60,441 nucleotides of DNA. Source: a virus. Its lineage: Duplodnaviria; Caudoviricetes. Positions 2,264-30,080 of this stretch are shown here, one piece after another. Under the pieces are notes generated by a model, which saw only the letters and a program-made list of their open reading frames with translations, was not told where the DNA came from and ran no database searches. The DNA lies in the IMG/VR virus record IMGVR_UViG_3300028835_000118, positions 1 through 60,441 of that record; one strand, given 5' to 3'. The position numbers and the translations under genes were made by a program. The first letter of the stretch is position 1. Every line of letters starts with the position of its first letter.

Positions 2264-2295
2264 TTTGGAAAATTGAAATAGTTGAACTATATTTG
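2264..2295 (+). promoter_or_regulatory. First early promoter, TTTG-N20-TATATTTG
   Basis: Bacteroidota -33/-7 consensus at canonical spacing at the start of the + strand arm. Confidence 0.75.
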
Positions 2296-2338
2296 AACCG
2301 AAATTAAAAATTAATTAATAACAAAAAACACAAAAATT

Positions 2339-2518
2339 ATGAAAAATTTAGTAACAAATCAGGTAGAAATCAGTACAATCGAAGAACAAGCACAAGCTCA
2401 GTTTTTTGCAGAAGACAAGCTCGAAAGAGATTTTCATTCAGGGTTCATCTCTGAAGAAGAGTACAACGAAGGTTTACAGGGTATATTCAGAAACTTTCAA
2501 GATATCTACGGATTCTAA
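2339..2518 (+). CDS. Small acidic protein (59 aa), first early gene
   Basis: Manual translation MKNLVTNQVEISTIEEQAQAQFFAEDKLERDFHSGFISEEEYNEGLQGIFRNFQDIYGF; A-rich leader; below the ORF-track cutoff. Confidence 0.75.
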   Translation: MKNLVTNQVEISTIEEQAQAQFFAEDKLERDFHSGFISEEEYNEGLQGIFRNFQDIYGF

Positions 2519-2540
2519 AAAAACAGGGGGCTATGCCCCC

Positions 2541-2594
2541 TCTGTCGAGAGCTGTGTGGCTCTCCTGATGATGACTCAAAAGAGTCGAAACAGA
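2541..2594 (+). ncRNA. Type III hammerhead ribozyme
   Basis: Stem III TCTGT/ACAGA; cleavage triplet GTC (cut after 2546); stem I GAGAGC-TGTGTG-GCTCTC; core CTGATGA; stem II GACTC-AAAA-GAGTC; GAAA. Confidence 0.88.
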
Positions 2595-2624
2595 AATAAT
2601 TAACTTAAATAAAAACTTAAAATT

Positions 2625-3566
2625 ATGACAACACAGAGTAAAAATGCAGTTCTAAAGAAGGTGAAAGACACCTTGTTAGAAGGGCTTAAGAAGGATGGGC
2701 TACAATGGTTCAAACCTTGGAAATCAGGGGAGAATCACCCCATCAACAACAAATCAGGTAGAGCTTACAGGGGTTTTAATACTTTCATCCTAAACTATCA
2801 GATGGTAACAGAAGAGTATGATTACAACGAATGGGACACCTTCAAGAGCATATCTGCAAGGGGTGGAAAAGTTAAGAAGGGTCAAAGGGGAACGGATATT
2901 TTCTTTTGGTTAATCTCTTACTGCTCGAAGGAAAACTTCGGCACTTGGTACAGAACGAAAGCAGAGTGTATGCAGAAGGAAAATTGTACAGAAGATGAAG
3001 TTTTTACAAACTTCGACTTGAGATATTACAGAGTATGGAATATCGGACAATGTGAAGGGTTAAAGCCCCTGAGAAAATTAGGTGAGACGAAAGAAGTTAA
3101 GCCAATCGAAAGTTGCGAAAAAATCGTAGCGAAGTACAAGAAGATAGCTAAGAAGTTAACCTTCAAAGACGTTGAGCAGGACAGAGCTTACTACTCACCT
3201 TCGAAAGATATGATTGTAATGCCGTTAATGACTCAGTTTGATTCTGAAGATAAATATTATCATACTCTGTTCCACGAGATGATACATTCAACAGGTCACG
3301 ACTCGAGATTAAACAGAGAAGGAGTTGCTACAGCATATCAGTTAAATAAGACCAAACACGACTACGCATTTGAAGAGCTAATTGCAGAGAGTGGTGCGAT
3401 GGTGTTATCAGGTATGGCAGGAATCAACACAGATGACGAAAGCAAGCAATCTCAGGCGTATGTGAACGGATGGGTGAAGGCAGTAGAGAAAGCCGATGAG
3501 AAGGCAGTTGTTTCAGCTCTAACGCAGTCAGCGAAAGCTACTGACTACATCTTAGGGGTTAAGTAA
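2625..3566 (+). CDS. ardC: ArdC-like antirestriction protein (ssDNA-binding N-domain plus zincin metallopeptidase)
   Basis: WxKPW, GRAYRGFN, GGKVKKG, AYYSPSKDMIVMP, HEMIHSTGH and YAFEELIAE motifs. Confidence 0.88.
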   Translation: MTTQSKNAVLKKVKDTLLEGLKKDGLQWFKPWKSGENHPINNKSGRAYRGFNTFILNYQMVTEEYDYNEWDTFKSISARGGKVKKGQRGTDIFFWLISYCSKENFGTWYRTKAECMQKENCTEDEVFTNFDLRYYRVWNIGQCEGLKPLRKLGETKEVKPIESCEKIVAKYKKIAKKLTFKDVEQDRAYYSPSKDMIVMPLMTQFDSEDKYYHTLFHEMIHSTGHDSRLNREGVATAYQLNKTKHDYAFEELIAESGAMVLSGMAGINTDDESKQSQAYVNGWVKAVEKADEKAVVSALTQSAKATDYILGVK

Positions 3567-3576
3567 CCTCTAAGAT

Positions 3577-3620
3577 AGCTGAGAATGGTTGCAAAGGGGT
3601 TCGATTCCCCTTCTCAGCTC
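3577..3620 (+). ncRNA. Mini tRNA-like element 1 (acceptor-like stem, D-loop mimic, T-arm)
   Basis: AGCTGAGA/TCTCAGCT stem enclosing ATGGTTGCAA and AGGGG-TTCGATT-CCCCT. Confidence 0.7.
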
Positions 3621-4939: not shown

Positions 4940-5013
4940 AGCGAGGTAGAGCAGTTGGTCAGCTCGTTGGGTTCATATTCCAAAGGTCGCAGGTTCGAAT
5001 CCTGCCCTCGCAA
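4940..5013 (+). tRNA. tRNA-Met(CAT), initiator-like
   Basis: Full cloverleaf: AGCGAGG/CCTCGCA (1:72 mismatch), D-stem GAGC/GCTC, TTGGG-TTCATAT-TCCAA, GCAGG-TTCGAAT-CCTGC; CCA not encoded. Confidence 0.9.
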
Positions 5014-5014
5014 C

Positions 5015-6045: not shown

Positions 6046-7266
6046 ATGGAAAAAGCAACCATTAAAAATTATGACCATCTTTTAAAGATAGATTGGTTCA
6101 ATCAGGTCTCTACTATAGAGGTTAACCTACACGAGAAGGGGGATAACTCGAAGACCACAACCTATAACTTTCGTTTGAATGAAGAGCAATCTGTATGTGA
6201 TGTTCTTACTGAACAGAAACTTATCAAAGATACAGACGAGGTTCGTCAACAAATTAACAGCGAAATTAATAAGCATATCAATAGTATTATTCAGAAGCGT
6301 CTAAATAACTATACTACAGCAGTTGACGTTCACAATATGTTAGTGGACTTAGATGTGAAAGACAAGAGACAATGGTCTTGTGGCGAAGCATACGAAGGTA
6401 AAATAAAATGGGGTGACGAAGTAGATTCAAACTTTGCGAGCCATCCATCCGAGGAATCATTTGTGTGTCCTACGGAAAACCTATGTTACTTCAATCCAAA
6501 AGCATTTGTGATTCGAATGGCTTGTCCCTATGACTACGATTGGAAAGCTGATAGATATAAGCATATATATAACAAAGATAAGTGCGTGGTAAATGTTAAT
6601 AGCTTTGGCGTATGCGACCTTGAGTTGCGTTTGGAATTCAAAAGCAAGGACTACAAAACAGGAGAGAGGTTTAACATTCCTAACCCTGCGTTATTCTATA
6701 ACCTTAGACAAAAAGATAATACCATAAGTAAGGTTAGCTTTATCGATGTGGCACTCTCAGAAAATAAATATAAGCCAATGGGAAAAGGACTTACTAAAAC
6801 ATATAAGTTTCAATCTTATTATGTGGGTAACGACTCGAGAAGTTTATCGTTAAATACATTTATAGTATACTGCCGTGAGAAATCTGACACCAACAGAAAG
6901 TTCTTTCTTCAGGATGTAGTTGAATCGGTAAACAAAGAAGAGATGTTAAAAGAGTTGAAAGAAAAGTTTGGTGAGGAGAATGTATTCAAGACAACAGCTT
7001 ACCAAAGCGATGTGAACTTTAAGAAGATGGATAGTTGGGGCAGGTATGGGTCGAAGGTAGTTAAGGTAATCCTGAAAGATGAGAGCTACTTGTTATATGA
7101 TTATACTGAGATAAAAAGAAACAAGAAATTAGAGCTTAGAGGTTTGTGGGATTCAAGCTACACAAAAGAATCAGTTAGTGATGCGTTTGAAAGAGTTATG
7201 AATAAGAATATAGAAGACAAATCTCTTGTCTCTGATATGATAGAAACAACATTTAACAATGAATAA
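6046..7266 (+). CDS. Hypothetical protein (406 aa)
   Basis: Long ORF with no motif I recognise. Confidence 0.8.
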   Translation: MEKATIKNYDHLLKIDWFNQVSTIEVNLHEKGDNSKTTTYNFRLNEEQSVCDVLTEQKLIKDTDEVRQQINSEINKHINSIIQKRLNNYTTAVDVHNMLVDLDVKDKRQWSCGEAYEGKIKWGDEVDSNFASHPSEESFVCPTENLCYFNPKAFVIRMACPYDYDWKADRYKHIYNKDKCVVNVNSFGVCDLELRLEFKSKDYKTGERFNIPNPALFYNLRQKDNTISKVSFIDVALSENKYKPMGKGLTKTYKFQSYYVGNDSRSLSLNTFIVYCREKSDTNRKFFLQDVVESVNKEEMLKELKEKFGEENVFKTTAYQSDVNFKKMDSWGRYGSKVVKVILKDESYLLYDYTEIKRNKKLELRGLWDSSYTKESVSDAFERVMNKNIEDKSLVSDMIETTFNNE

Positions 7267-9098: not shown

Positions 9099-9459
9099 TA
9101 TGGCTAAAGAAATAAAACACCCACAGGAAGTTATTCAAACAGCAATGAAAGTTCTTGAAGAATGTGGATATGCAACAAGAAACTTATGGCACATAGATGA
9201 TGTTACACAGAGTCATCCACACCTAAACCTAACTAAAGATGAGTGTCTTGAAGTGCTAGACCATACATTATCTAACGAGCAATTAACTGAAGAGACATAT
9301 AGGGTGATGGATGATTCAGTAGCTTGGATGTTTAACCCTGAGAAAGATGATGAAGGTCTTGACATTCCTGTTGATATGTATCCTGATGAAATTCTAAGAA
9401 TGAAAATGGAGGGAGCAAGCAAGAAAGATATACAAAAAAAACAACAGGACAATGAGTAG
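9099..9459 (+). CDS. Hypothetical protein
   Basis: Likely start MAKEIK within the track ORF 9058..9459; start coordinate approximate. Confidence 0.65.
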
Positions 9460-12579: not shown

Positions 12580-15000
12580 ATGACATCAGAGCAGAAAATT
12601 ACTATATTCAAAAACATAAAAGAGACAGACACACCATTTCATAGACCTGTCAAGCACATACTTAAAAGAATTAAAGACGGCTCAACTAAGGAGCTTGTTA
12701 AACAAATCAGAGCTGAGAAAAGAAAGGCAGAACGAAACGAATTAAAGAAGAGTTTACCTGCTATATGTTTCTCAGGTATATTTAATAAACGAAACGACTC
12801 ATCAATACAAGAACACACAGGAATTATATGTCTTGACTTTGATGGGTACGAAAAGAACAAAGACTTACTACAAGATAAAGAGAACCTCACCAAGAATAAT
12901 TTTGTTTACTCGGTATTTATTTCTCCTTCAGGTCTTGGCTTAAAGGTATTAGTAAAGATACCAAAGGATGCAGAGAACCACATCAATTACTTTAATGCTT
13001 TATCAAAACACTTTGATAACCCAAGGTTTGATGAGACATGCAAAAACATTTCAAGGGTTTGCTACGAAAGTTATGACCCTCTTATATATATAAACGAGAA
13101 CTCAAGTGAGTGGGATAAGATTGAAGAAAAGGAATACCAAGAGAAACATTCCTTGCGTGACCTTCCCACGATACCAATAACAGACGAGAATAAGATAGTA
13201 GATATACTTACGAAGTGGTGGGTAAAGAAGTATCCTATGGATGAAGGTCAGCGAAACAATAATACATTTGTTTTGGCTTCAGCATTCAATGACTTTGGAG
13301 TTAACAAATCTCTTGCTAGTTATGTGTTAAGTAATTATCAAACCAAAGACTTTGGTCTCAATGAGATACAACGAACTATAGATTCTGCCTATGCACAAAC
13401 TCAAAACTTTGGGACGAAATACTATGAGGATGACGAAAGAATAAATACCATCAAGCTTAAGCTCAGACGAGGGGTTTCGAAAAAAGAAATCAAGAGTCAG
13501 TTATTAGATACTGAAGTGGAAGCAAATGTAATTGACGCAGTCTTACAAAGAGTTGACGAAGAAAACAAAGAGCAGAAGTTTTGGTCAAAGAGTGACAAGG
13601 GTGTAATCAAAATAGTTCACATCTTATTCAAACAATTCTTAGAGGACAATGGGTTCTATAAGTATTGTCCTGAAGGCAGTAAGAACTATGTGTTTGTTAA
13701 GGTAACTAATAACCTCATCGACCATACTGATGAGAAACAAATCAAAGACTTTGTATTGAATCATTTGTTTCAGCTAGATGATGCGAGTATCTACAACTAC
13801 TTTGCTGATAACACAAGGTTCTTTAAGGATGAGTTCTTATCGATGTTATCTACTATAGATATATACTTTATAGAAGATACCAAGAACACCTCTTATTTAT
13901 ACTTTAAAAATTGTGCAGTAAAGATTACTAAAGATTCATTAGACTTACTTGACTATCTAGATTTAGGTGGGTACGTTTGGAAAGACCATGTGATAAATAG
14001 AAACTTTAATGTTTGTGATTTTGAGACAGCAGACTACAAACAATTTGTATCTAACATATGTAAACGAGAAGATGACAGAGTCAAGTCGATGGAATCAACT
14101 ATTGGTTTCTTAATGCAGGGTCACAAGAACCTGAGCTATTGTCCTGCTGTTATATTAAATGATGAGGTTATCTCGGACAACCCTGAAGGTGGAACAGGGA
14201 AGGGGATATTTATGAACGCATTAGCTCAGATGAAGAAGGTAGTTACTATAGATGGGAAATCTTTTTTCTTTGAGAGAAGCTTCGCTTATCAATTGGTTTC
14301 AGCAGACACGCAGATTCTAGTATTCGATGATGTGAAAAAAGCATTTGACTTTGAAAGGTTGTTCTCGGTAGTGACTGAAGGTCTGACCTTAGAAAAGAAA
14401 AATAAAGATGCAATTAAAATTCCTTTTAGTAAGTCTCCTAAGATTGCAATCACAACTAACTATGCAATTAAAGGAGCAGGTAATTCTTTTGCTCGAAGGA
14501 AGTGGGAGCTAGAGTTACACCAACATTACAATAAAAGTTACACCCCTTTAGATGAATTCGAAAAGTTAATGTTTGGTGATTGGGATGATGGAGAGTGGTG
14601 TAAGTTTGACAACTATATGATTAGTTGTTTGCAGTTATATCTAGCGAAAGGATTAGTTAAAAGTAAATTCGTAAATTTAAAGATTAGACAGCTATCGGCT
14701 GAGACCTGTCATGATTTCATAGAATGGTGTGGAGTTATTAATGGTTCGATAGCAAACGATAAACTGCGAGTGGACAATAAGATTAACTTACAGGATTGCT
14801 ACTATGATTTCATAGAACAGTACCCTGACTACGCACCTAAAGCTAAGTTAACTATATCAAGGATTAGGTTTAATAAATGGATGGTTTCATACGCACATTA
14901 TCAAACAGGTGGAGCACCTGATGAAGGAAGAGATGAACACGGAAGATGGATAAGATTAAAAAGACAAGACGAACTTAACACACAAACTAAACTAATATGA
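12580..15000 (+). CDS. Primase-helicase (BT4734/VirE-N primase domain, PriCT, SF3/D5-like P-loop helicase)
   Basis: LPAICFSG, CLDFD, FISPSGLGLK, GQRNN, Walker A GGTGKG, Walker B LVFDD, ITTN. Confidence 0.85.
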   Translation: MTSEQKITIFKNIKETDTPFHRPVKHILKRIKDGSTKELVKQIRAEKRKAERNELKKSLPAICFSGIFNKRNDSSIQEHTGIICLDFDGYEKNKDLLQDKENLTKNNFVYSVFISPSGLGLKVLVKIPKDAENHINYFNALSKHFDNPRFDETCKNISRVCYESYDPLIYINENSSEWDKIEEKEYQEKHSLRDLPTIPITDENKIVDILTKWWVKKYPMDEGQRNNNTFVLASAFNDFGVNKSLASYVLSNYQTKDFGLNEIQRTIDSAYAQTQNFGTKYYEDDERINTIKLKLRRGVSKKEIKSQLLDTEVEANVIDAVLQRVDEENKEQKFWSKSDKGVIKIVHILFKQFLEDNGFYKYCPEGSKNYVFVKVTNNLIDHTDEKQIKDFVLNHLFQLDDASIYNYFADNTRFFKDEFLSMLSTIDIYFIEDTKNTSYLYFKNCAVKITKDSLDLLDYLDLGGYVWKDHVINRNFNVCDFETADYKQFVSNICKREDDRVKSMESTIGFLMQGHKNLSYCPAVILNDEVISDNPEGGTGKGIFMNALAQMKKVVTIDGKSFFFERSFAYQLVSADTQILVFDDVKKAFDFERLFSVVTEGLTLEKKNKDAIKIPFSKSPKIAITTNYAIKGAGNSFARRKWELELHQHYNKSYTPLDEFEKLMFGDWDDGEWCKFDNYMISCLQLYLAKGLVKSKFVNLKIRQLSAETCHDFIEWCGVINGSIANDKLRVDNKINLQDCYYDFIEQYPDYAPKAKLTISRIRFNKWMVSYAHYQTGGAPDEGRDEHGRWIRLKRQDELNTQTKLI

Positions 15001-19267: not shown

Positions 19268-22200
19268 CTATTGTATTGGGTCGAACACATTTTTTCTTGT
19301 TCTTCTAGTTCGAGTTCTATTTCTTTGGTTGATTGGTGCGAACACATCACTATTGTTTAGATTATTGCTTTGTCTTTTCTTTCTTTCTTGTTCTTTGTAA
19401 TACTCTGCATTCTGTTCAGCTATACTTTTTGTTTTTTTGGTAGACTTTTTTTGTCCCCCTTCAATTACATAATCAGAAAAGTTGAACAATCTTAAAATGT
19501 CTGTACCTATATCACCTGTCTTACCCATTTTCTCTAAGTTATTTACAAACCTAGTTACTTGAGTGGCAGGTAAACCTGTGGTGTTTACTATCTCTATATA
19601 TAACTTAGCAAAGTTTGCTGCTCTTTTCTCAGGGTCTTTAGTATTTAAAGCTCTTGTTGCAAGTTGAGAAATTCTAGCGATAGACATTAGTGGAGCAATA
19701 CTTTTACCTTGCTTACCTGCGTATGGCTTCTGCTGTATTACATCAGCAATTTGATTTACAGCATCACCCACGATAAACAAAGCATTCAGGTTACCAATAA
19801 CCATAGCTCTAATTAAATCTTCTTCATCATCAGGACGCACAGGTCTAAGTAATCCCGGTAATCCTAATGCTACATATTGGAATAGAGTAGGAGCTAATAA
19901 ATGATAAGTAATAAAGGTTCTTAAGTTTTCACCTAGTGTACCTTTACCTGCGTTTCTATCCCAAGCTTTTAACTTTCTCCAAAGATTACGAGTAGATTGA
20001 ATTTCTTTTCTTAAGTATTGTTTAGGTGTAGTTAAGAACATATTCAAACCTCTTTGTAATGCACCTGCAGTTTGGTAGTAGTCTCTATCCTGTAAGTCCA
20101 TCGACTGCTGTGTTCTCTTGGTATCTTTTTCAAATTTAATTATAGCTTCTTTCTGTGCTTGTTCTTCAGATAACCCACGCTTTAATGCTTGGTCTTTGTA
20201 GTATAAATAGTTAGGCATACCTCCAAGATAGATAGCTGCCTTATCTCCAAACTTAGTTGAGTACATAATAAAGTTTACATAGAAATCCCAATACTGATTA
20301 GGAACAAACTCTGTCATTCCATCCTCGGTGTAAGACTCAATAACTCTAGTAATCGATTGTCGGTTTCTGTCTTGCATATAAACAGAGTTCTCAGATATTT
20401 CTTTAAACGTCTTCTTAATCTGAGGAATATTTTTTAGAGAATACTTTAACCAATTCCTAAAGCCGATATCATTTGCATATGTAATCATAGATGTTAACTG
20501 CTTTAACATAACAGTTGGGTTCAAACCAATTCTAGAAAATATAAATAGGTTGTTCATATAGTTAACGAATCTATCTGCTCGGTTATCCCTCACTCCTTTG
20601 TTAGCTATCTTACCTATCATATCCCTAATCAATCTGTTTACATAGTCTCCATGAATAGCACCGATAGCATCTTTAACTTGCTTGTTGGTAAACATTTTGT
20701 ATATGTCTCTAATGGTTTCACCATAAGCTGCAAAGTATTCCATGTCTCTTAGGTACGTTGCCATTACATTCATATTGTTCATCTTTCTAATAGGAAGATT
20801 GTTTTGGGTTCGAGACTTAGTAGACGAAGCACCAACCGAGGTATTCATAATAGATTTGTCAGACAACATATCAAGAGGTTGTTGTTCAATTGGATTACCT
20901 TGAGTGTCGTTTCTATATATCATCCCTGCATAAAATCTATTCCAAGGAAGATTAGTTCTATATAATGCTTTATATGTTTTGTTATAGTGCTCATACAACG
21001 AAGGGTAGAATTCATTTACTTGCCAATCAGCAAACTCTTTTACCTCATCTTCCATTTTAGATTCTATCTCCTCCATAATTCTTACATAGTCTTTTCCAAA
21101 AGTAGCTTTGAACGAACCTGCATTAGCAGGGTCTTTGTAAAGGTTATAGTAATACATCATTTCATTTTGACTAAGATGTACTGAGTTTTCTAGAAGAGCT
21201 TTTTCTAAAGCTTGCTTGTTTTCTAAACTTGGATTAGTATTAAAATCATTTTCTGCTTTAGCAACTGCATCAGGGTCTAATAAATAAGTAGCTTCTTTTG
21301 CAGGCTTATTATTATCTCTTACTTTATTTCTCCATTTTTTCCCATATAACTCTTCAAACTTTTTAGATATAATACCTTCTTGTTCCATCATCCTTCTCTT
21401 AAACATTCTACTAGACGCATCAACTCTTCCGGTTACCATCTCCTGCAGTCTACCTCCAAACATTTCCCCGGGCAAAGTAGATATCAAATCCATAAGACCA
21501 TCTAAGGCTTCAGCTTCATTAAAGAATTTAGTAACCATTGTGTTAAGCTTGGTTGTAAATTTTCTTAATACCCCTTTAAGTTTATTTCTTTTAGCGTTTA
21601 ATCTTTTCTGATTTTTAAGGTCCACTTCGGAACGAGTACCTTTATCTCCTAAGTCTGTCTTCTCACCTGTAACTTCTTCATAAGCGATAGACGCATCTTC
21701 ATTATATTTATTATGTTGGTCTTCAAGCTGTTGCTTTAACTCACTCCTACCTATTTCAATCATCTCCTCTAATGCTGCAAGAGCTGTATCTAAAGAACCT
21801 GTCTTATTGACATCTGTATTCTCCATTAACAATGAGTTGTTTAGATTAATTAAAATTTGAAGGTCAACCATACGGCTAAAATCTCCTTCAGTCGTTTGAG
21901 ATTTTGCTGCTATACTATTAAACTCTTGAGTTAGTGCTTCGTTCTCAGCCTCTATTTGTTTGGCTGTGGAATTCTTGCCTAACCTATCTTGTTTAATCTT
22001 TTCAATTCTTTCTTTAATATTTAAACTAATCTTAGTCCCCTTCTTTCTGCCTGATACTTTAGTTTCATACTTACCGTTAAGAATATTTTCAATTTTATTC
22101 TCTAGCCTTGCATTATTTTTTTTGTTTACAAACTCTAACACTTCCTCAAATATATTCTCAAGGTTTGTTTCGTTTGCATTAGTAACTTTTCTAATAAGGC

Positions 22201-25200
22201 TCATCACTTCACTACGAGTATATATATCTGCAGGTAAAGATTTTCTGATAAAGTTTCTTATAGCTGCCTTAGCTTTCTGTAAATCTTTAGCACCACGCTT
22301 TCTTTGTTGTACCATTCTACGAGCAGCAGTAAGCTTCTCTTGTACGTTTTCACTTGTCCTAGTACCCACAGCTCTTTGGAACTCCACTTGAAGCATAGCT
22401 TGTTTAGTAGTTAGATTTTTAGTTCCATCACCTTCGTTCTTATATTCAGGTTGTTGAGTTAGGAATTCAATAGTTTGGTCTGCTATTTGCTGTTCTGTAA
22501 GCTTGACCTTTCTCCTCTTATTTCCTTTAATAAGTTTTTGTTCAAAAGCTTTTACTCTTTTAAACAACTTGACACCTGCTTCCATACCACCCTGTATGTT
22601 GGCAAATGTTTTAGGTAAAGTGTTAAATAAATCTACATCGATATTCATTAGCTTGTTAACTACACTTGCAGGATATCCCTTAACTCTAACCAAATAATCT
22701 TTGATAAGTTCATCTCGGAAATTGTATTCAGTTCTACCTTCTACAATTATATCTACTATATCTTTTTGCTCTCGTCCTCTAGGACTCAAGATAATCTTTT
22801 TAGTTTGAGCTTCATCTAATATTTTACCTGTTAATGGAGTGTTTTCTTGAATAGCTTTTTCAACTCGGTGATGTCCATCTATTAACAACAAACCATCTTT
22901 GGTTGTAGCAATAATAACAGGCTGACTAAGGTCTGCATTTTCAATTCCCTCTTCAGTCTTTGTAACAAAAGCATAGGTCATCTTAGGAAGAATATCCATA
23001 GGTAATTTTACAGACTGAGTTTCTTGAGTGTTAACTATATTCATGGCACCATCTATGTCATAATTTGTTTCTCCAAAAGTAAACACCTGACCATCTGCTT
23101 CTTGCTGTTGTTCTCTACCCCTAGGCTTAGCAATTATTTTTTCAGTTATCTGCTCAAATAATGGGGGTTTAGATTGTGCAATTAAACTTGTCGCTGAAGC
23201 CTGCCCTACTACCATTAAGTCTTTGTTCTTATATTTAAACTCTACTTTATTCTCACCTTTAAGGTCGGTGTAAGTACGCTGTGATAAAGGTTTATTTCTT
23301 ACTTCCGGCTTATAAAACTTATCATCTTGATATTGCTCTATTACTCTTTCATTAATCTCCACCTCTTTAGTCTTATCCTTCAATAAAGTTTCAGGCATAA
23401 AAGGTTGTAACGATTCCTTCACGCTATATAGTCCATCAAATATTACTGCTGAGTTAGCCTCGGAAGGAACTTTACCAACAAAGAAAGGATGAGTGATTCC
23501 TTTATCTTGTGTTTCTTCCACTAAAGATTTGGTGTCTTCCGGAACTACATAAGTAAATCCACCTACTACATATCCTCCCTTGTTTTCTTTTAAAACTGTT
23601 TCGCCTAGCAATGCTTTATCTCCATACTCTAAGTTAAAGTCTTGAGTGTTAGTTCCATTATCAAGTAATGCTTTTTTATAGGCAGGAGTAGACTTGTTTG
23701 TTTTTAATGAAGGTGAACTTGGTATAATACCCTGCATATAATATCTTCTTCTATCAAAGCTTTCATTCTTCATAGCGTCTGTGAATTCAGTTTCAGAAAA
23801 AGAACTTGGGTCTATAATTATAGCTTGAACTTCCGGGGAAAGAGCTCCACCCATTCTACTGTTTGAATAGGAAGCCATCTCTTTAGAATACTTCTTATAC
23901 GCAGCAGGGTCTTTTCTTTGTAAGTCTTCTAATGCATCATATAAAAATTCTGACCCATACATATTTCCATACATAGCATCAGGGGTCTGTATCATAATTG
24001 CCACACCAACCCTATCGCCTGCCTTGTATTTATTTTTAAGCTTATTCATATTGCTTAAAGCTTTGCCGGCATTCTCAGATGCAAACCCTACACCATTCTC
24101 ATTGTTATCTTTTAGAGCTGCATAACCAAAACCACCAAGTAAATCTTTTTCAGGGTCTAAAGCTGTAGCATCAGAATTAATTACATAAATATTTCCATTG
24201 TGTTGCGCAGCAAAATCGTTAAGAGTAGTTGTAGGTAGGTCGGATACATTCTCTCCTTTATAAACTTGCTGTTCTCTGCCCGGAACTTTTTCAGCTTTAG
24301 CTTTAGGATTTACTGTAGCTGCTACTCCATTATCAGAATAAGGCTCTGACTTTTCTAGTACCTTAAAGTCATTAACAAAAACTTCTTGACCCATTGCCAC
24401 TTTATCTGCCAAAGTGTTAAGTAAATCTACTACTGCTGCATCGTCTTGAGTTATATTAGGACTAATGTCTATTAGCTTATCTATTCCTAAAGTTCTAGCT
24501 GTAGATTTTAAAAAGTTTAATATAGCATTTTGCGCAGGTCTCTCTAGTCGCTGATAGTTGCTTGACATAATACCAAATAATTCTGCTAATCTCTCCTCGT
24601 TTTGAACAGTCATTCCTTGGCTTTTATATTGCTTCGCAAATGCGTCAGCTTTTTTATAAAGCATTGTGTTTTTATCTACAGCACTCATTACCCCTTTAGT
24701 AAGCATGTTAACTGCCTTTGCTATATTGGCTTCGCCTAATCTTTCAAACAACATAGCGTGAAAAGCTTCATGAGCCACGGTAGTTTCAATAGCTTTATTC
24801 ATATCTATATGAATGGTATTAGTATCAAAGTCGTAAAACCCTCTACCTTTTCTACCTGTAGCATTATTAAACTCATCCGAAGATTCGTGTAAAACTATTT
24901 TAGTTTTAAAATTTTTAGCTAATGACTTAGCTGCTTTCACGGCTCTATTTATAACCTTGTTACGCATAGAAGTTTGTTCCTTATCTAAAGCACCTTTAGG
25001 TTTACCTTTTCTATTAAAGAATAAATTATTTGTTACTCCTGTTTGGTCTTCTTTACTTCCAAAAGCTTCTTCAATGTCTTGCTTTTCTTCTATAGTTATA
25101 TCTCCATCACTATCCGTTTCTTCTGTTTCTGTTTGGGTTGCAACTGTACCTAACTCCGGTATACTTGCCTCTGCTTTTGCAGCAGCTTCTTGTTGTTGGG

Positions 25201-28108
25201 CAGCAATAACTGTAATGTTTTCAAGTTGCTCATTTATTTCAGCTATTCTGTCTTGGTCTTTTTTGGTTAGCTGTTTATTTTTACCATCAATTTTATTCTC
25301 TAGGTTTTGTTTTTCTAACAATAAGTTTAAGGCTACTCTTGATTGTTGAACTGTATAATCAGTCGGAATAGATGGCATCAAGGCTTCTATCTGATTATAG
25401 TTAGCTAATAAACCATCAGCACCTGCCTGAGTTAGTGGGTCGTTAGGGTCAGCTACTCTTTGTTTTAGATTGGTAACAAACATTTTTTTGTATGAGGGGT
25501 CTTTCAACATCTCTTGATACCACGCAAAAGCTTCGTCAGAAACTAAATCTAAATCGTTAGGGTTACTTGCCATAGCAGATATAGCTGTAGGTACTGCCAT
25601 TACTTTACCACCAAGAGCTTCAAGATATCCTTGATACGCTACCTCTTTAAAAAATGCTCCTACTGATTGAGGAGTATTAAACGCTGCATCTTTTCCTAAA
25701 AGTTTTTCTCTAGCTAAGTTATATATATACTCTGAACTTAATTCAGCTACAGTTTGTAAAGCTCCTGTTTCAAATTCAGTCGCTGCACCTGCACCTAATA
25801 CTAATCCACCTTGAGCTGCTGCAATTTTCCACGCATCTTTACCTTGGTCACGCATCAGGTTTTTTAAATCTTTTCTAATAAATTCAGCAAAGGTTTTACT
25901 TGTTGTTGTTTTATTAGTTTTTAATAAAGCTCTTCCTACTAAACCATTTACAAACCCTTGTTGTGTTAGTAAGTTTCTGAAACCATAATCTTCTAATATA
26001 GCAGTAGCAATAGCTACAGGATATGCAATTATTCTTTTTTCTCCTTCATTTATGTTGTCAAAGTTTGGATTCATTGCCATCTTTTGCAATTGAGCGTCTG
26101 TACTTTGAGCCATTAATCTTACAATCCTCGTAGTCTTGTTTATATTTTTACGATTCTGAATCAATTTTTTCCCAAGCTCAGGACCATACTTCATCGTAAG
26201 TTCTCCTGTTTTTTTGGCACCTGTTTTTAAAATACCAATGAAAGCCGGAATAGAATAGGTCACCCCATGCATAGCTTTTTGAAAATCATTCCCTTTATTT
26301 TTATAGGCTTTTCTTAAAAATTCTTGTGGGGTATCTTCTTGTCCTAAATATCTAGTAAATATGGAATTAAATGCTTCTCTACTTCCTGACTCTAACTCTC
26401 TTCCAATAAAACCTGCTTGTCCCGTGTAAGGATTACGATTAAAAGCATCACCCCTCGCTGCACTTTTAGCTCTATCTACCCCTGTAATAATTTCTCCTGT
26501 ACCAATTCTAATTCCACCTTCTCCCTTCTGTGTGTCAAGTATATCGGTTGCATAAAAACCGGTAGGGTCTCCCCCTCTTTCTTGAAAAGATTTTCTATAA
26601 ACTTGATTCATTGCATTTACGGTATAGTCTCGTAAATCATCACCATCTGCATTCTCTATGCTTTGAAACAAAGCCTTACCATTAGTGCTTCCAATTTCTA
26701 GCATTAATTTTTTTAACCTCTCTTGGTCATAAGCATCAAGATTAGTTCCCTTATCTAATATTCCTTTTATCTGTGCTACCTCATCAGCATACTCGCCTCC
26801 TAGTATATTGACATCATCTACCTTATATTTCTGCTCTCTATTTTGGGACAATAAATCTATAGCAAAATCTACATGAGAATCAAAATCTTCATCTACATCT
26901 ACAGGGTTAAGTGCGTATTCTATAGGTGCTATAATTCCTGAATATAATTCATTAGGTAACGAAGTAATAGCTCCACCAACACCACCTAAAAAAGATTTAA
27001 GAAGTCGTTCTATACCTAACAATCCTCCCTTGGCTTCTGTAGCAGCATAACGAGCATCTACAAATTCTCCTACCATCAAGTCAAACTCTCTTCCTTTCTG
27101 CTGAAAACTTAATTGACGCTTATGCAATGCGTCTTGCACCATATCAAGACGGTCTGAAGCCATCTTATAGGTGTTGTAGTTAGGGTCGGCAGCTAGTTCT
27201 TGAGGAGTTTTTCCGGCAAAAGAGTTCTTATATATTTTTTCTAATCTAATTTTTTCTGCTGAATAAGCTTTTACATCTTCAGCAAACCTATCCACTTGTG
27301 TATTAAACAAAGTGTTTAAAGCCATCAACTCTTTTTCGTCTTGAATTTTATTTAGCTTAAATTCTTCCTTTTTCAGACCTTCAGCAAAAGCTAGTTCAGA
27401 TGCTTCTCTATTATCTTGTAGAAACTTTTTAAGTTCATTAGCTCTTTTCTTTGCATTAATTTCTAGACCTTCAAAGAATGGCATACCAAAAGCATCTAAT
27501 GGTACAGTCATTTCCTCACCGTTGGCTGAGGTTACTTTCATTTTATCACCTGCACCTGTCTCTTCAAACTTAAAACCATACTGCCCAAACTTGTAGTTCA
27601 TTTCAGGGACTACTGATTCTTCTTCTCTATCTGAGGTTAGCTTTTCATCAATAAAATCTATATTAGCTTGAAAGACATTATCGTCTAAATTTTCCCCGTA
27701 CTCTTTTGATAAAATAGTATTTGCAAATGGGTCAGAGGTATCAAATGTTCTCTGAGTTAAATATGATTCCGAAGTAATATCGTCTCCCGTTAAACCGGAA
27801 GGAGATGCCGGAGGTGTAAGGGGGGTTTGTTCCGGAGGTAGATTGATTTCGTTTGGCTGATTTAAGTCTACGTTTAGATTTTTTTTTTCATCCACATCTG
27901 TCGATACTATTTCTACAGATTCACCTCCAAAACCTATATCATTTTTAAAAGTATTCATGTCAGGCATATCAAAATGCTGCAGCATACTTTCTCTAAACCT
28001 TGCTAGCTTCTCTTCGTCTTGCATATCTACCACAAACTGTTCGTAGGGTGGCATATCAAAATGTTGTTGCGCACTTTGGTAGACTCTTTGTAATACTTCC
28101 TCATTCAT
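19268..28108 (-). CDS. Giant polyvalent-type ejection/internal virion protein with a zincin metallopeptidase and a ParB-like domain
   Basis: RGFYD..IHID..TVAHEAFH..NEERLAE; PVIIA..LLLIDGHHRV; last large gene of the virion module. Confidence 0.75.
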   Translation of the reverse strand: MNEEVLQRVYQSAQQHFDMPPYEQFVVDMQDEEKLARFRESMLQHFDMPDMNTFKNDIGFGGESVEIVSTDVDEKKNLNVDLNQPNEINLPPEQTPLTPPASPSGLTGDDITSESYLTQRTFDTSDPFANTILSKEYGENLDDNVFQANIDFIDEKLTSDREEESVVPEMNYKFGQYGFKFEETGAGDKMKVTSANGEEMTVPLDAFGMPFFEGLEINAKKRANELKKFLQDNREASELAFAEGLKKEEFKLNKIQDEKELMALNTLFNTQVDRFAEDVKAYSAEKIRLEKIYKNSFAGKTPQELAADPNYNTYKMASDRLDMVQDALHKRQLSFQQKGREFDLMVGEFVDARYAATEAKGGLLGIERLLKSFLGGVGGAITSLPNELYSGIIAPIEYALNPVDVDEDFDSHVDFAIDLLSQNREQKYKVDDVNILGGEYADEVAQIKGILDKGTNLDAYDQERLKKLMLEIGSTNGKALFQSIENADGDDLRDYTVNAMNQVYRKSFQERGGDPTGFYATDILDTQKGEGGIRIGTGEIITGVDRAKSAARGDAFNRNPYTGQAGFIGRELESGSREAFNSIFTRYLGQEDTPQEFLRKAYKNKGNDFQKAMHGVTYSIPAFIGILKTGAKKTGELTMKYGPELGKKLIQNRKNINKTTRIVRLMAQSTDAQLQKMAMNPNFDNINEGEKRIIAYPVAIATAILEDYGFRNLLTQQGFVNGLVGRALLKTNKTTTSKTFAEFIRKDLKNLMRDQGKDAWKIAAAQGGLVLGAGAATEFETGALQTVAELSSEYIYNLAREKLLGKDAAFNTPQSVGAFFKEVAYQGYLEALGGKVMAVPTAISAMASNPNDLDLVSDEAFAWYQEMLKDPSYKKMFVTNLKQRVADPNDPLTQAGADGLLANYNQIEALMPSIPTDYTVQQSRVALNLLLEKQNLENKIDGKNKQLTKKDQDRIAEINEQLENITVIAAQQQEAAAKAEASIPELGTVATQTETEETDSDGDITIEEKQDIEEAFGSKEDQTGVTNNLFFNRKGKPKGALDKEQTSMRNKVINRAVKAAKSLAKNFKTKIVLHESSDEFNNATGRKGRGFYDFDTNTIHIDMNKAIETTVAHEAFHAMLFERLGEANIAKAVNMLTKGVMSAVDKNTMLYKKADAFAKQYKSQGMTVQNEERLAELFGIMSSNYQRLERPAQNAILNFLKSTARTLGIDKLIDISPNITQDDAAVVDLLNTLADKVAMGQEVFVNDFKVLEKSEPYSDNGVAATVNPKAKAEKVPGREQQVYKGENVSDLPTTTLNDFAAQHNGNIYVINSDATALDPEKDLLGGFGYAALKDNNENGVGFASENAGKALSNMNKLKNKYKAGDRVGVAIMIQTPDAMYGNMYGSEFLYDALEDLQRKDPAAYKKYSKEMASYSNSRMGGALSPEVQAIIIDPSSFSETEFTDAMKNESFDRRRYYMQGIIPSSPSLKTNKSTPAYKKALLDNGTNTQDFNLEYGDKALLGETVLKENKGGYVVGGFTYVVPEDTKSLVEETQDKGITHPFFVGKVPSEANSAVIFDGLYSVKESLQPFMPETLLKDKTKEVEINERVIEQYQDDKFYKPEVRNKPLSQRTYTDLKGENKVEFKYKNKDLMVVGQASATSLIAQSKPPLFEQITEKIIAKPRGREQQQEADGQVFTFGETNYDIDGAMNIVNTQETQSVKLPMDILPKMTYAFVTKTEEGIENADLSQPVIIATTKDGLLLIDGHHRVEKAIQENTPLTGKILDEAQTKKIILSPRGREQKDIVDIIVEGRTEYNFRDELIKDYLVRVKGYPASVVNKLMNIDVDLFNTLPKTFANIQGGMEAGVKLFKRVKAFEQKLIKGNKRRKVKLTEQQIADQTIEFLTQQPEYKNEGDGTKNLTTKQAMLQVEFQRAVGTRTSENVQEKLTAARRMVQQRKRGAKDLQKAKAAIRNFIRKSLPADIYTRSEVMSLIRKVTNANETNLENIFEEVLEFVNKKNNARLENKIENILNGKYETKVSGRKKGTKISLNIKERIEKIKQDRLGKNSTAKQIEAENEALTQEFNSIAAKSQTTEGDFSRMVDLQILINLNNSLLMENTDVNKTGSLDTALAALEEMIEIGRSELKQQLEDQHNKYNEDASIAYEEVTGEKTDLGDKGTRSEVDLKNQKRLNAKRNKLKGVLRKFTTKLNTMVTKFFNEAEALDGLMDLISTLPGEMFGGRLQEMVTGRVDASSRMFKRRMMEQEGIISKKFEELYGKKWRNKVRDNNKPAKEATYLLDPDAVAKAENDFNTNPSLENKQALEKALLENSVHLSQNEMMYYYNLYKDPANAGSFKATFGKDYVRIMEEIESKMEDEVKEFADWQVNEFYPSLYEHYNKTYKALYRTNLPWNRFYAGMIYRNDTQGNPIEQQPLDMLSDKSIMNTSVGASSTKSRTQNNLPIRKMNNMNVMATYLRDMEYFAAYGETIRDIYKMFTNKQVKDAIGAIHGDYVNRLIRDMIGKIANKGVRDNRADRFVNYMNNLFIFSRIGLNPTVMLKQLTSMITYANDIGFRNWLKYSLKNIPQIKKTFKEISENSVYMQDRNRQSITRVIESYTEDGMTEFVPNQYWDFYVNFIMYSTKFGDKAAIYLGGMPNYLYYKDQALKRGLSEEQAQKEAIIKFEKDTKRTQQSMDLQDRDYYQTAGALQRGLNMFLTTPKQYLRKEIQSTRNLWRKLKAWDRNAGKGTLGENLRTFITYHLLAPTLFQYVALGLPGLLRPVRPDDEEDLIRAMVIGNLNALFIVGDAVNQIADVIQQKPYAGKQGKSIAPLMSIARISQLATRALNTKDPEKRAANFAKLYIEIVNTTGLPATQVTRFVNNLEKMGKTGDIGTDILRLFNFSDYVIEGGQKKSTKKTKSIAEQNAEYYKEQERKKRQSNNLNNSDVFAPINQRNRTRTRRTRKNVFDPIQ

Positions 28109-28109
28109 T

Positions 28110-30080
28110 TTAGTAGGATTTCGGTTTACCTTTTCCTGATTGTCTTGGACCTATAAGTTTTGCCAATAAAGCTTCGTTAGCTGCAATATTCTCGGCAGCA
28201 ACTGCGCCCATTATATATGTATTTAATGCGTTCAACTGCCTTTGCATCTCTTCAGGTTCCTTGTTTGTATAAAGTATAAACCCTTCATCTGTAGCTCCCT
28301 GTGGTCTGATTTGAACACTATTGCTCCAATTGCTATAGTTATTAGTCTCTAAACCTAATGCATCTAGATAAGGTGTTAACTTATTCATTACTTCTATATC
28401 ATCTGTTATCTGTCCACCTCCTGTATCTTGAAGAACATTGTTGTAAGTTAAGGCTGTTTGTAAGTACCTGTTTAAGTATTGTTGGTCGCCTTCCTCAGTA
28501 GTTGCTCCTGCTCCTGCACCTGTAGGTGTAATAGAACCTAACTGATATGTTTCACCTATTTTGAAAAGCTTGGTAACATCAGCATCTTTACCAAGGGTTC
28601 TTACCTCTTCTCGAACAGAGCCATCCGGTAGTCTGAACTTGATTACATAGTCACCCTCTTTTTCTCCTGCTTTAACGCTTGCAACTTTACCACTTCGTAC
28701 ACCACCTGCTAAGTCAACACTATCTCCAATGTTAGATACACCTGTTAATAATGCTGCAGATTCTGCAAAGGTTTCAAAATCCATTATGTTACCACTTGAA
28801 TCTACCATTGGAACAGGTTTAGTTACTCCGTCTTTAGTTACATATATTATGTTTCCTTTCTTTTGTACATCGTCTGCACCTAATACATCTCTAAAGTAAG
28901 TCTCGGCTGCATCCACTTCTTTTTGGTTACCGTAAAAGATATCACCCAACATATTAAAGGTCTTTTGATTTTTCTTATCAGTCTCTCCTTTTATAATATT
29001 ACTTGCTGATTCAAATGGTTGTCTGCTTGCTGAAGCTTTAATCTTTTTATCTACTGAATCATTTAATCTTTCTATAATAGCGTCTTTTACTGCTTTCTTT
29101 TGGTCGTCAGTAAACTCAGGTTGTCCACCCATATCGGTGTCTCGGTTCAAATATATCTCATTTGCTTTTCTTTTATTGGGGTCTTTCTCATAAGTAAAAG
29201 TATAAGGAACTTTTTTACCCCCTACTTCAACCGTTAAGTTTTCATTAGTTAAAATAGAAGTTACGTTGAATGGATTAGCCATCATTGCATCTGCCGTGTA
29301 ACCTGCCCACTCGTTATATTCTTTAATTAATTGTGCGTCTCCACTATATTTTCCACCTTGAGAAGTGGTAGTAATAATCCTATCTAACCCTCCTTCTTTT
29401 CCTGATAATTCTATAGACAATTCATCAATCAATCCTAAATCATCTACAGCAGCATTAACATCGGCACGCACATCATAATAATTATAAGTACCTTTTAGAT
29501 TAGACATTAACTCAGGTACTGTTTGAAAGCTTGATGGGTCTGTATCCATTTTCCCATCTTTCCATAATCCAATTGACACCATACCATTATTAGGATTGAT
29601 TAAGGCTTTGGTGTTTCGTAAGTTATATAGTCCTTCTGCTTGCTCCATCTTCCATTGCTCTAGCATTTGAGAACGAGTAGCCGGGTCAGCCGAATTCATT
29701 CTCTCCATCTTAAGCTTATACGCTTCTTGATAAGCCTCGCCTAACTTAAACATCTGCTTGTTTGAGTCATTAAGATTGGCTCTAACTATAGAATATTCTC
29801 TAGGTTTTAAAATACCTTGTCTTAAAAGTCTGTCTTGTGTAAGTAGAACTTGCTGTGCAGAAGAAGCATAGTCAGCTACAAAGGTATTTCCATCTACATA
29901 GTCTCCGGTTGGAGCATTCTGTAATGTTTCCACCATCTCTCTAGAAGCCTTGTCAATCTCAGCCTTTTGGTTTTCTCTTGACTTTGCTTCTTCATTTAAT
30001 ATTGTGGTAAACTGTGTAGCTACTGCACCCCAATCTACTTGGTCGGTTGCTTCTCTTCTTACATATCCAAATTTGCTCAT
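28110..30080 (-). CDS. Putative internal virion/ejection protein
   Basis: Position between tail genes and the giant protein; helical, charged N-terminus. Confidence 0.55.
   Translation of the reverse strand: MSKFGYVRREATDQVDWGAVATQFTTILNEEAKSRENQKAEIDKASREMVETLQNAPTGDYVDGNTFVADYASSAQQVLLTQDRLLRQGILKPREYSIVRANLNDSNKQMFKLGEAYQEAYKLKMERMNSADPATRSQMLEQWKMEQAEGLYNLRNTKALINPNNGMVSIGLWKDGKMDTDPSSFQTVPELMSNLKGTYNYYDVRADVNAAVDDLGLIDELSIELSGKEGGLDRIITTTSQGGKYSGDAQLIKEYNEWAGYTADAMMANPFNVTSILTNENLTVEVGGKKVPYTFTYEKDPNKRKANEIYLNRDTDMGGQPEFTDDQKKAVKDAIIERLNDSVDKKIKASASRQPFESASNIIKGETDKKNQKTFNMLGDIFYGNQKEVDAAETYFRDVLGADDVQKKGNIIYVTKDGVTKPVPMVDSSGNIMDFETFAESAALLTGVSNIGDSVDLAGGVRSGKVASVKAGEKEGDYVIKFRLPDGSVREEVRTLGKDADVTKLFKIGETYQLGSITPTGAGAGATTEEGDQQYLNRYLQTALTYNNVLQDTGGGQITDDIEVMNKLTPYLDALGLETNNYSNWSNSVQIRPQGATDEGFILYTNKEPEEMQRQLNALNTYIMGAVAAENIAANEALLAKLIGPRQSGKGKPKSY

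Follow-up and report, generated by a model that had tools for sequence, protein, structure and literature searches.

We describe a hammerhead ribozyme in the viral record IMGVR_UViG_3300028835_000118, which was analysed over its full length of 60,441 bp (the window) and is a complete phage record with a 136-bp exact terminal repeat. The element is a type III hammerhead motif on the plus strand at positions 2541-2594, with a predicted cut between C2546 and G2547, and it stands between a short conserved gene (gene 1) and ardC, which encodes an anti-restriction protein. We are fairly confident that it is a real hammerhead, and the fuller reading, that it is a genuine type III ribozyme under purifying selection that is transcribed in a rightward early operon, also appears likely to us. 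Judged from its sequence, the ribozyme is probably active.

The element reads TCTGTCGAGAGCTGTGTGGCTCTCCTGATGATGACTCAAAAGAGTCGAAACAGA and shows the features of the hammerhead class, namely a conserved core, an N-U-H cleavage triplet (where H is not G), and three helices, of which stems I and II are capped by loops and stem III is open. Stem III pairs 2541-2545 with 2590-2594 in five perfect base pairs, including U16.1-A15.1 (U2545-A2590), and the triplet GUC (2544-2546) fits the N-U-H form. Stem I (2547-2552 with 2559-2564) has six perfect base pairs, a possible additional U-G closing pair, and the loop UGUGUG. It is followed by the core strand CUGAUGA at 2565-2571, read from the sequence as C3 to A9. 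Stem II (2573-2577 with 2582-2586) has five perfect base pairs and the loop AAAA, and the second core strand, GAAA (G12 to A15.1, 2587-2590), leads into the 3' strand of stem III, which extends to 2594. In the class, A9 is directly followed by G10.1 of stem II, whereas here stem II starts one nucleotide later, with an extra U at 2572 in between. We treat the direct junction as quasi-conserved rather than strictly defining because accepted natural members carry an extra base at this point, as does the plus-strand hammerhead of chrysanthemum chlorotic mottle viroid, CChMVd(+), with its A10 (PMC3705267).

A preliminary description of this DNA had reported the core, the GUC triplet, the three perfect stems, and both loop sequences, and all of these are found where it had placed them. 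The same is true of the extra U at 2572, of a GC hairpin directly 5' of the ribozyme (2525-2541), and of the gap of 30 nt to ardC, since the ribozyme ends at 2594, the ATG is at 2625, and the gene is identified as ArdC by both Pfam and PHROG. Its remark that single insertions between A9 and stem II occur in natural hammerheads agrees with the viroid example above.

The window was searched on both strands with our own descriptor, which covers types I and III, leaves N7 free, and allows zero or one inserted base after A9, and 2541-2594 is the sole match. When the window is shuffled 1000 times with dinucleotide composition preserved, minimal stem lengths give 44 matches (about 0.044 per shuffled genome), and stems as long as those observed (at least 6 bp in stem I and at least 5 bp in each of stems II and III) give one. 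In addition, the 54-mer folds better than all of 200 shuffled versions (z = -3.13).

Rfam reports no hammerhead in the whole window at the gathering threshold, nor in a 260-nt input at E<=10, and a search of the genome with RF00008 (Hammerhead_3) scores 12 candidates and returns 0 matches. On a 74-nt input (2531-2604), RF00008 gives a full-length match (positions 1-54; 33.0 bits, E 3.7e-6) in which U2572 is treated as an insertion, and we therefore attribute the misses on larger inputs to filter losses. The comparison with Hammerhead_3 by Infernal, which the preliminary description had put forward as a check, is thus favourable in part: the full-length match on the short input supports it, and the absence of a match on larger inputs, together with a score below the gathering score of 48.5 bits, does not. 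We ascribe the shortfall to the U inserted next to the A9/G10.1 metal site and to the lengths of stem II and the loops, not to the core. Rfam scans at gathering threshold would miss hammerhead variants such as the one in the window. A model of our own, R1, run over the window with filters off, finds no second hammerhead, with nothing above 18.9 bits besides 2541-2594; the next-best matches, at 9367-9409 and 13693-13741, lack proper stems and were rejected.

Relatives and covariation

Further loci were found in IMG/VR through ArdC, nine of them in a first set (L001 to L009). The closest relative, L001, has an ArdC that is 94% identical and a hammerhead at the orthologous site upstream of ardC, without the extra U. 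Compared with the window, stem I of L001 differs by one compensatory pair, and its stem II is a different canonical helix of 4 bp. Rfam scores the L001 hammerhead at 48.5 bits, which is the gathering score itself; other scores are 39.5 bits for L003:3972-4026, 37.4 bits for L006, and 24.7 bits for L003:2921-2968.

We also searched IMG/VR with a pattern that fixed only CCTCTGTC, CTGATGA, and GAAACAG, that is, the core and the flanks of stem III. This search found 37 stretches, of which 30 also form stems I and II. The seven others (L013, L014, L020, L022, L024, L032, and L043) are all nearly the same sequence; they do not satisfy the stem descriptor and were not accepted as hammerheads.

For the covariation analysis, 37 distinct type III sequences were aligned on the hammerhead structure, which gives 16 pairs. 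Compensatory changes affecting both sides occur in 13 of these pairs (134 cells), and all seven stem I pairs of the family alignment carry such changes. None of 500 shuffles reaches any of the five measures used, and registers slid along the alignment pair only 30-46%. The core columns are invariant in the 37 sequences apart from the U7 column, which is at least 90% conserved, and GAAAC is invariant as well. With an L001 orthologue that attains the Rfam gathering score and 37 distinct members that covary in all three stems, the type III identity proposed in the preliminary description is borne out. The loops are also conserved in the family: loop I is mostly UGUGUG or UGAGUG, and loop II mostly AAAA, GAAA, or CAAA. 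This conservation is compatible with a tertiary contact between loops I and II that would allow fast cleavage at physiological Mg2+, although it is suggestive only.

Variation is also seen among metagenomic DNA contigs. Here, 2530 G>A and 2536 C>T go together and form a compensatory pair in the hairpin. One variant lacks 2572, 2576, and 2583, so that the extra U is gone and one base pair of stem II is removed, and another contig carries a stem II of the L001 type.

Two side observations concern the family as a whole. In 12 of the 37 distinct hammerheads, A.A or U.U replaces G10.1-C11.1 at the base of stem II and the remainder is intact (L002:2932-2982, L004:2938-2990, L005:1296-1346, L015:1639-1687, L015:2875-2925, L021:2204-2254, L025:12755-12803, L031:9653-9703, L031:12555-12605, L034:5976-6024, L037:309-357 on the minus strand, and L042:5458-5506); these members could represent a natural series of tuned or slowed ribozymes. 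Moreover, an identical stem I and loop I (GATAGGTGTGTGCCTATC) is present in L012, L023:5673-5724, L025, L027, L028, L030, L036, L038:11652-11702, and L044, where it is joined to differing stem II sequences and unrelated downstream genes across contigs. The sharing of GATAGGTGTGTGCCTATC suggests recombination or spread of ribozyme cassettes among phages.

Among GenBank phages, a blastn search with 2300-3600 gives no match, and R1 gives none in MW202828.1, whose primase/helicase is 72.8% identical, or in Maribacter phage Panino. One hammerhead is present in a cultured phage, Flavobacterium phage vB_FspP_elemoE_10-3D (MT497078.1, Elemovirus), at 28914-28966 on the minus strand, which corresponds to L051:1015-1067 (minus strand). 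It is of type III, scores 37.5 bits with R1, and has a GUA site and the core CUGAAGA. It occupies a divergent intergenic region, with the leading gene of a leftward operon starting about 15 nt downstream; it has no 5' GC hairpin and may serve as a laboratory model.

The hairpin-ribozyme-leader cassette

The ribozyme is flanked by two further parts. On its 5' side, the GC-rich hairpin (2525-2541, plus strand) has seven base pairs and the loop UAU, shares U2541 with stem III, and ends 5 nt before the cut. On its 3' side, the leader (2595-2624) consists of 30 nt that are AU-rich and contain no purine run resembling a Shine-Dalgarno sequence. A survey of 39 ribozyme modules finds the same architecture. 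When a hairpin is required to have at least 5 bp and at least 3 G-C pairs and to end within 8 nt of the cleavage site, one adjoins the ribozyme in 32 of the 39 modules as against 7 of 195 positions drawn at random from these loci, which supports the assignment of the hairpin to the ribozyme unit. In 27 of the modules, the distance from its end to the cut is exactly 5 or 6 nt. The upstream stop codon is found 21-41 nt before the ribozyme, and the spacer from ribozyme to ATG measures 19-30 nt in 36 modules. Leaders of the modules are AU-rich and without Shine-Dalgarno sequence, L035 being an exception. For the primase/helicase, the greatest similarity is to proteins of Flavobacterium, Polaribacter, Cellulophaga, and related phages, and the hosts of phages with the cassette are probably Flavobacteriia, judging by sequence similarity. 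Hosts of this class would fit leaders that lack a Shine-Dalgarno sequence.

Five related genomes of 57-61 kb contain 1, 2, 2, 3, and 3 copies, and these are grouped in the early region. The window genome has one, and the hammerhead before ardC is likewise the sole one in L001. In L002:2469-3936, the order is gene 1, a hammerhead, an open reading frame (ORF) of 47 aa, a second hammerhead, and ardC, as though a unit of ribozyme plus gene had entered the junction that the window shows between gene 1 and ardC.

The proposed mechanism is as follows. Once transcription has passed 2594 and the 3' strand has been made, stem III would be complete, the three-way junction would form, and the RNA would be cut after C2546. 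The upstream product would be the gene 1 mRNA, ending in the GC hairpin and 5 nt with a 2',3'-cyclic phosphate, and a fragment ending in such a hairpin should resist 3' exonucleases. The downstream product would begin with a 5'-OH at G2547 and contain the hairpins of stems I and II, an unpaired A-rich leader of about 38 nt, and ardC. The hairpin, ribozyme, and leader may act as a portable processing cassette that provides the downstream gene with a fixed 5' end and leader regardless of the upstream sequence. We infer cleavage by the window copy, the protection by the hairpin, and any benefit to ardC expression, including an effect of the 5'-OH end, and take the chemistry of the RNA ends from the established hammerhead mechanism.

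Points against and competing explanations

Several results count against a genuine, active hammerhead at 2541-2594. In nearest-neighbour folding, the active fold has -18.7 kcal/mol and the minimum free energy structure -19.0 kcal/mol; the latter pairs the core CUG with CAG of the 3' strand of stem III, and the pair probabilities of stem III are 0.30-0.46. The Rfam shortfall described above belongs here, as does the fact that the 59.4 bits given to 2541-2594 by R1 come from a model whose training set included the window sequence. The share of alignment cells that are paired, 94.7% versus 70.6% in shuffles, is partly circular because the 37 sequences were chosen by a descriptor that requires stems; the independent part is the result of the pattern search, in which 30 of 37 stretches form stems I and II. 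Transcript data are confined to one RNA run among the 20 sequencing runs listed, with 5% of words. It is available as contigs, which cannot show RNA ends, and its contig over 2718-3174, from a relative with about 87% identity (60 differences), leaves the ribozyme site outside and so speaks neither for nor against cleavage. Finally, among the 78 ArdC loci of the wider set described below, 69 have no hammerhead upstream, and the extra U could be a mildly harmful polymorphism, since alleles without it coexist in the same metagenomes.

Three other explanations differ widely in plausibility. That the site is a chance match to the hammerhead consensus without function could draw on the look-alikes with minimal stems that arise in shuffled genomes and on the silence of Rfam at standard settings. 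However, stems of the observed length arise in one of 1000 shuffles, and relatives keep the same gene junction with compensatory changes; the comparative sequence data effectively refute a chance origin, to which we give next to no credence. More serious, though still unlikely, is the possibility that the element belongs to the family and is attenuated or dead, U2572 disturbing the catalytic metal site, so that the window carries either a decaying allele or a deliberately slow partial cutter. The drop in Rfam score from the 48.5 bits of the L001 orthologue to 33.0 bits, the presence in the same samples of variants without the U, and the rarity of the bulged U, which 2 of the 37 distinct type III members carry, all fit such an allele, and regulation of the slower phage variants has been put forward as a possibility by Perreault et al. 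(PMC3088659). In CChMVd(+), the extra A10 between A9 and G10.1 moderately lowers the rate of trans-cleavage, and C or G at position 10 is strongly harmful (De la Pena and Flores 2001, as cited in PMC3705267 and PMC1636495). Against attenuation, the change of A10 to U raises the trans-cleavage rate 3-4 fold in the same viroid (PMC3705267), from which we consider it likely, by analogy, that the extra U is tolerated in the window ribozyme. The bulged-U arrangement has also arisen separately in L023 (5673-5724) and in the type I hammerhead of L009, and stem II differs in sequence from that of L001 yet retains five perfect pairs, which would be unexpected in a dead copy. Note that the analogy has its limits. 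Both ribozymes are natural type III hammerheads with a one-nucleotide insertion at the same core position, and the viroid case indicates that a U there is compatible with catalysis. However, CChMVd is a viroid RNA replicon in which the extra A also serves the global viroid fold, whereas the window ribozyme would be part of a DNA phage mRNA, and its extra base is a U, not an A, and is polymorphic in the population.

The remaining explanation places the function in the GC hairpin, which would be a terminator or attenuator, either on the minus strand or as a form without U-tract on the plus strand, with the hammerhead trimming read-through or having no role. A GC hairpin just past a stop codon is in the usual place of a terminator, and with the T-run GTTTTTTT that comes after it on the minus strand, the hairpin has the textbook form of an intrinsic terminator and is called terminator-like. 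L001, the closest relative, does not have the T-run, however, and the hairpin has no minus-strand gene leading into it, all genes from 2339 to about 19.4 kb being on the plus strand; we therefore rejected a minus-strand terminator at 2525-2541. The run probably arises from the TAA stop and an A-run. The plus-strand sequence after the hairpin is CUGUCGAG, without a U-tract, which is not the form of an intrinsic terminator. The hairpin is held in a fixed register relative to the ribozyme (the 5 or 6 nt before the cut noted above), which argues for one joint unit rather than a separate terminator, and the ribozyme itself covaries. A terminator as the functional element thus seems very improbable to us, and a genuine hammerhead with its hairpin remains the reading that we prefer.

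The link to ardC and its possible meaning

The gene downstream of the ribozyme, ardC (2625-3566, plus strand), encodes 313 aa with an ArdC N-terminal domain and a zincin-like metallopeptidase domain. Pfam identifies PF08401 (ArdcN; 73.8 bits, 1.9e-20) and PF18818 (MPTase-PolyVal; 98.4 bits, 4.1e-28), both above the cut-offs, and PHROG assigns the protein to phrog_7245, an anti-restriction protein (6.3e-58). An HExxH-type motif (H217, E218, H221) is invariant in 10 ArdC homologues. On the other side, gene 1 (2339-2518, plus strand) encodes a conserved protein of 59 aa that has no match in Pfam or PHROG, and its stop lies 22 nt upstream of the ribozyme. Homologues of gene 1 are found directly upstream of hairpin and hammerhead in L001, L002, L003, L004, L006, and L038, so that six other loci keep the order gene 1, ribozyme, ardC. 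A candidate early promoter (2264-2295, plus strand) consists of TTTG at 2264-2267, 20 nt, and TATATTTG at 2288-2295; it was read against the Bacteroidota -33/-7 promoter consensus and is given low weight. A scan for sigma-70-type sites flagged 2265-2293, but the total number of sites is no larger than in shuffles. The candidate promoter would make gene 1 the first cistron, for which it is weak evidence.

The position next to ardC recurs. In six of the nine loci of the first set, a hammerhead lies directly upstream of ardC, being of type III in L001, L002, L003, L004, and L006 and of type I in L009. In L005, a hammerhead lies just after ardC, and L007 and L008 have none. A profile built from ten ArdC proteins extends the set to 80 loci; in 78 of these, the sequence before ardC is 150 nt or longer. 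Nine of the 78 have a hammerhead whose end is 0-150 nt upstream of the gene, seven of them of type III and two of type I (L066 and L117). Six loci (L054, L056, L057, L058, L072, and L124) have a hammerhead just downstream of ardC, and L003 and L038 have one on either side of the gene. All ardC hammerheads are in sense orientation, and a descriptor search of the opposite strand gives 0 matches in the 80 loci.

Candidates of type I, that is, circularly permuted forms with perfect stems and a tetraloop-capped stem III, are found at L009:2931-2981, L066:640-691, L117:636-689, L003:4648-4705, and L003:6306-6368. Those of L009, L066, and L117 lie directly upstream of distant ArdC homologues (38-45% identity) and are called by our own descriptor; Rfam gives no match for the L009 candidate even on 81 nt, and does not report those of L066 and L117 at gathering threshold. 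In L003, 4650-4693 scores 22.4 bits for Hammerhead_1, and 6288-6368 scores 29.4 bits for RAGATH-1-hammerhead. When Rfam was run at gathering threshold on 40 of the 80 ArdC loci, a pistol ribozyme (RF02679; 67.5 bits, gathering 34.5) was seen at L082:488-554 and L083:488-554, both on the plus strand, upstream of an ORF of 39 aa (576-695), the end of which overlaps with the beginning of an ArdC homologue (692-1579). The pistol is a second ribozyme class in the place that the hammerhead takes relative to ardC.

Some other features of the window may be mentioned briefly. The source phage is marine. Tandem iteron-like repeats (units resembling GTCAACAGAAA) at 1486-1527 stand beside a terminator-like hairpin on the minus strand (1541-1564), and repeated CCTTCCCTT motifs at 2083-2150 lie inside an ORF-poor stretch (about 1883-2338) ahead of the early operon; the two sets of repeats may mark an origin or operator region. 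The minus strand carries a GroEL/Cpn60-like chaperonin gene (1-999; Pfam PF00118, phrog_5725), whose ORF is open at the start of the window, and an ORF of 2946 aa (19268-28108). A tRNA-Met gene (CAT) is found at 4940-5014 on the plus strand.

Phage hammerheads that adjoin anti-restriction genes and process polycistronic RNA are already known. Hundreds of hammerheads from bacteria and phages were reported by Perreault et al. (2011), who proposed that they process long phage transcripts into gene-length mRNAs (PMC3088659). In their account, clustered hammerheads of prophages and phages flank single genes, including ardA in a prophage of Agrobacterium tumefaciens; a triple arrangement flanking ardA cleaves in vitro and in Escherichia coli, and ardA lies immediately downstream of a hammerhead in three Legionella strains (PMC3088659). 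The window element is therefore less novel than the preliminary description implied. It resembles the ardA cases in that an intergenic phage hammerhead lies immediately 5' of an anti-restriction gene with the same proposed role, and L003 and L038 resemble the flanked ardA in having hammerheads on both sides. Unlike those cases, the gene is ardC, of an unrelated anti-restriction family (ArdC-N and metallopeptidase), the hosts are likely Flavobacteriia, the ribozyme is of type III with a fixed 5' hairpin and an AU-rich leader without Shine-Dalgarno sequence, and the activity is a prediction. Another comparison is offered by HHphage of the haloviruses HF1 and HF2, which is separated by 13 nt from the start codon of the early helicase gene that it precedes and for which a 5' end has been mapped within 3 nt of the cleavage site (PMC3088659). 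In both cases, a hammerhead is part of an early phage gene's leader and stands some tens of nucleotides before the start codon. However, the halovirus ribozyme comes from an archaeal virus, its core is a variant one, it needs Mg2+ at high concentration, and the first ORF of the transcript lies downstream of it, whereas the window hammerhead stands between two cistrons.

The link with ArdC, the fixed 5' hairpin, the cassette architecture, and the junction variants seem to be new. In the literature searched, we found no paper that links a hammerhead with ArdC or a self-cleaving ribozyme with a Flavobacterium phage, although Dataset S1 of PMC3088659 may list members of the family.

The cassette invites comparison with a synthetic device. 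RiboJ-type insulators combine a hammerhead with a hairpin, and their cleavage removes variable upstream RNA and so standardises 5' untranslated regions. RiboJ is an engineered device whose hairpin follows the ribozyme on the 3' side, whereas the hairpin of the natural cassette is 5', where it would cap the upstream product. As a tentative extension, which we rate as possible rather than probable, the family may be a portable RiboJ-like cassette of Bacteroidota phages that travels with early "moron" genes, above all anti-restriction genes. It would set mRNA ends independently of the insertion site, and the rate of cleavage, and so expression, would be tuned at the junction of A9 and stem II (G-C, A.A, U.U, or bulged U).

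The association of hammerheads with ardC extends the observation made for ardA in 2011 to a second, unrelated anti-restriction family. The family is a clean case for the role of the widespread phage hammerheads: in the window and in L001, the single hammerhead of the genome is at one conserved junction, between gene 1 and ardC. The junction variants (bulged U, A.A, and U.U) provide a ready-made allelic series with which to ask whether the cleavage rate is tuned. If the proposal holds, the recurrence of type III, type I, and pistol ribozymes before ardC would, along with the ardA cases already in print, be the mark of a general connection in function between anti-restriction genes and self-cleaving ribozymes.

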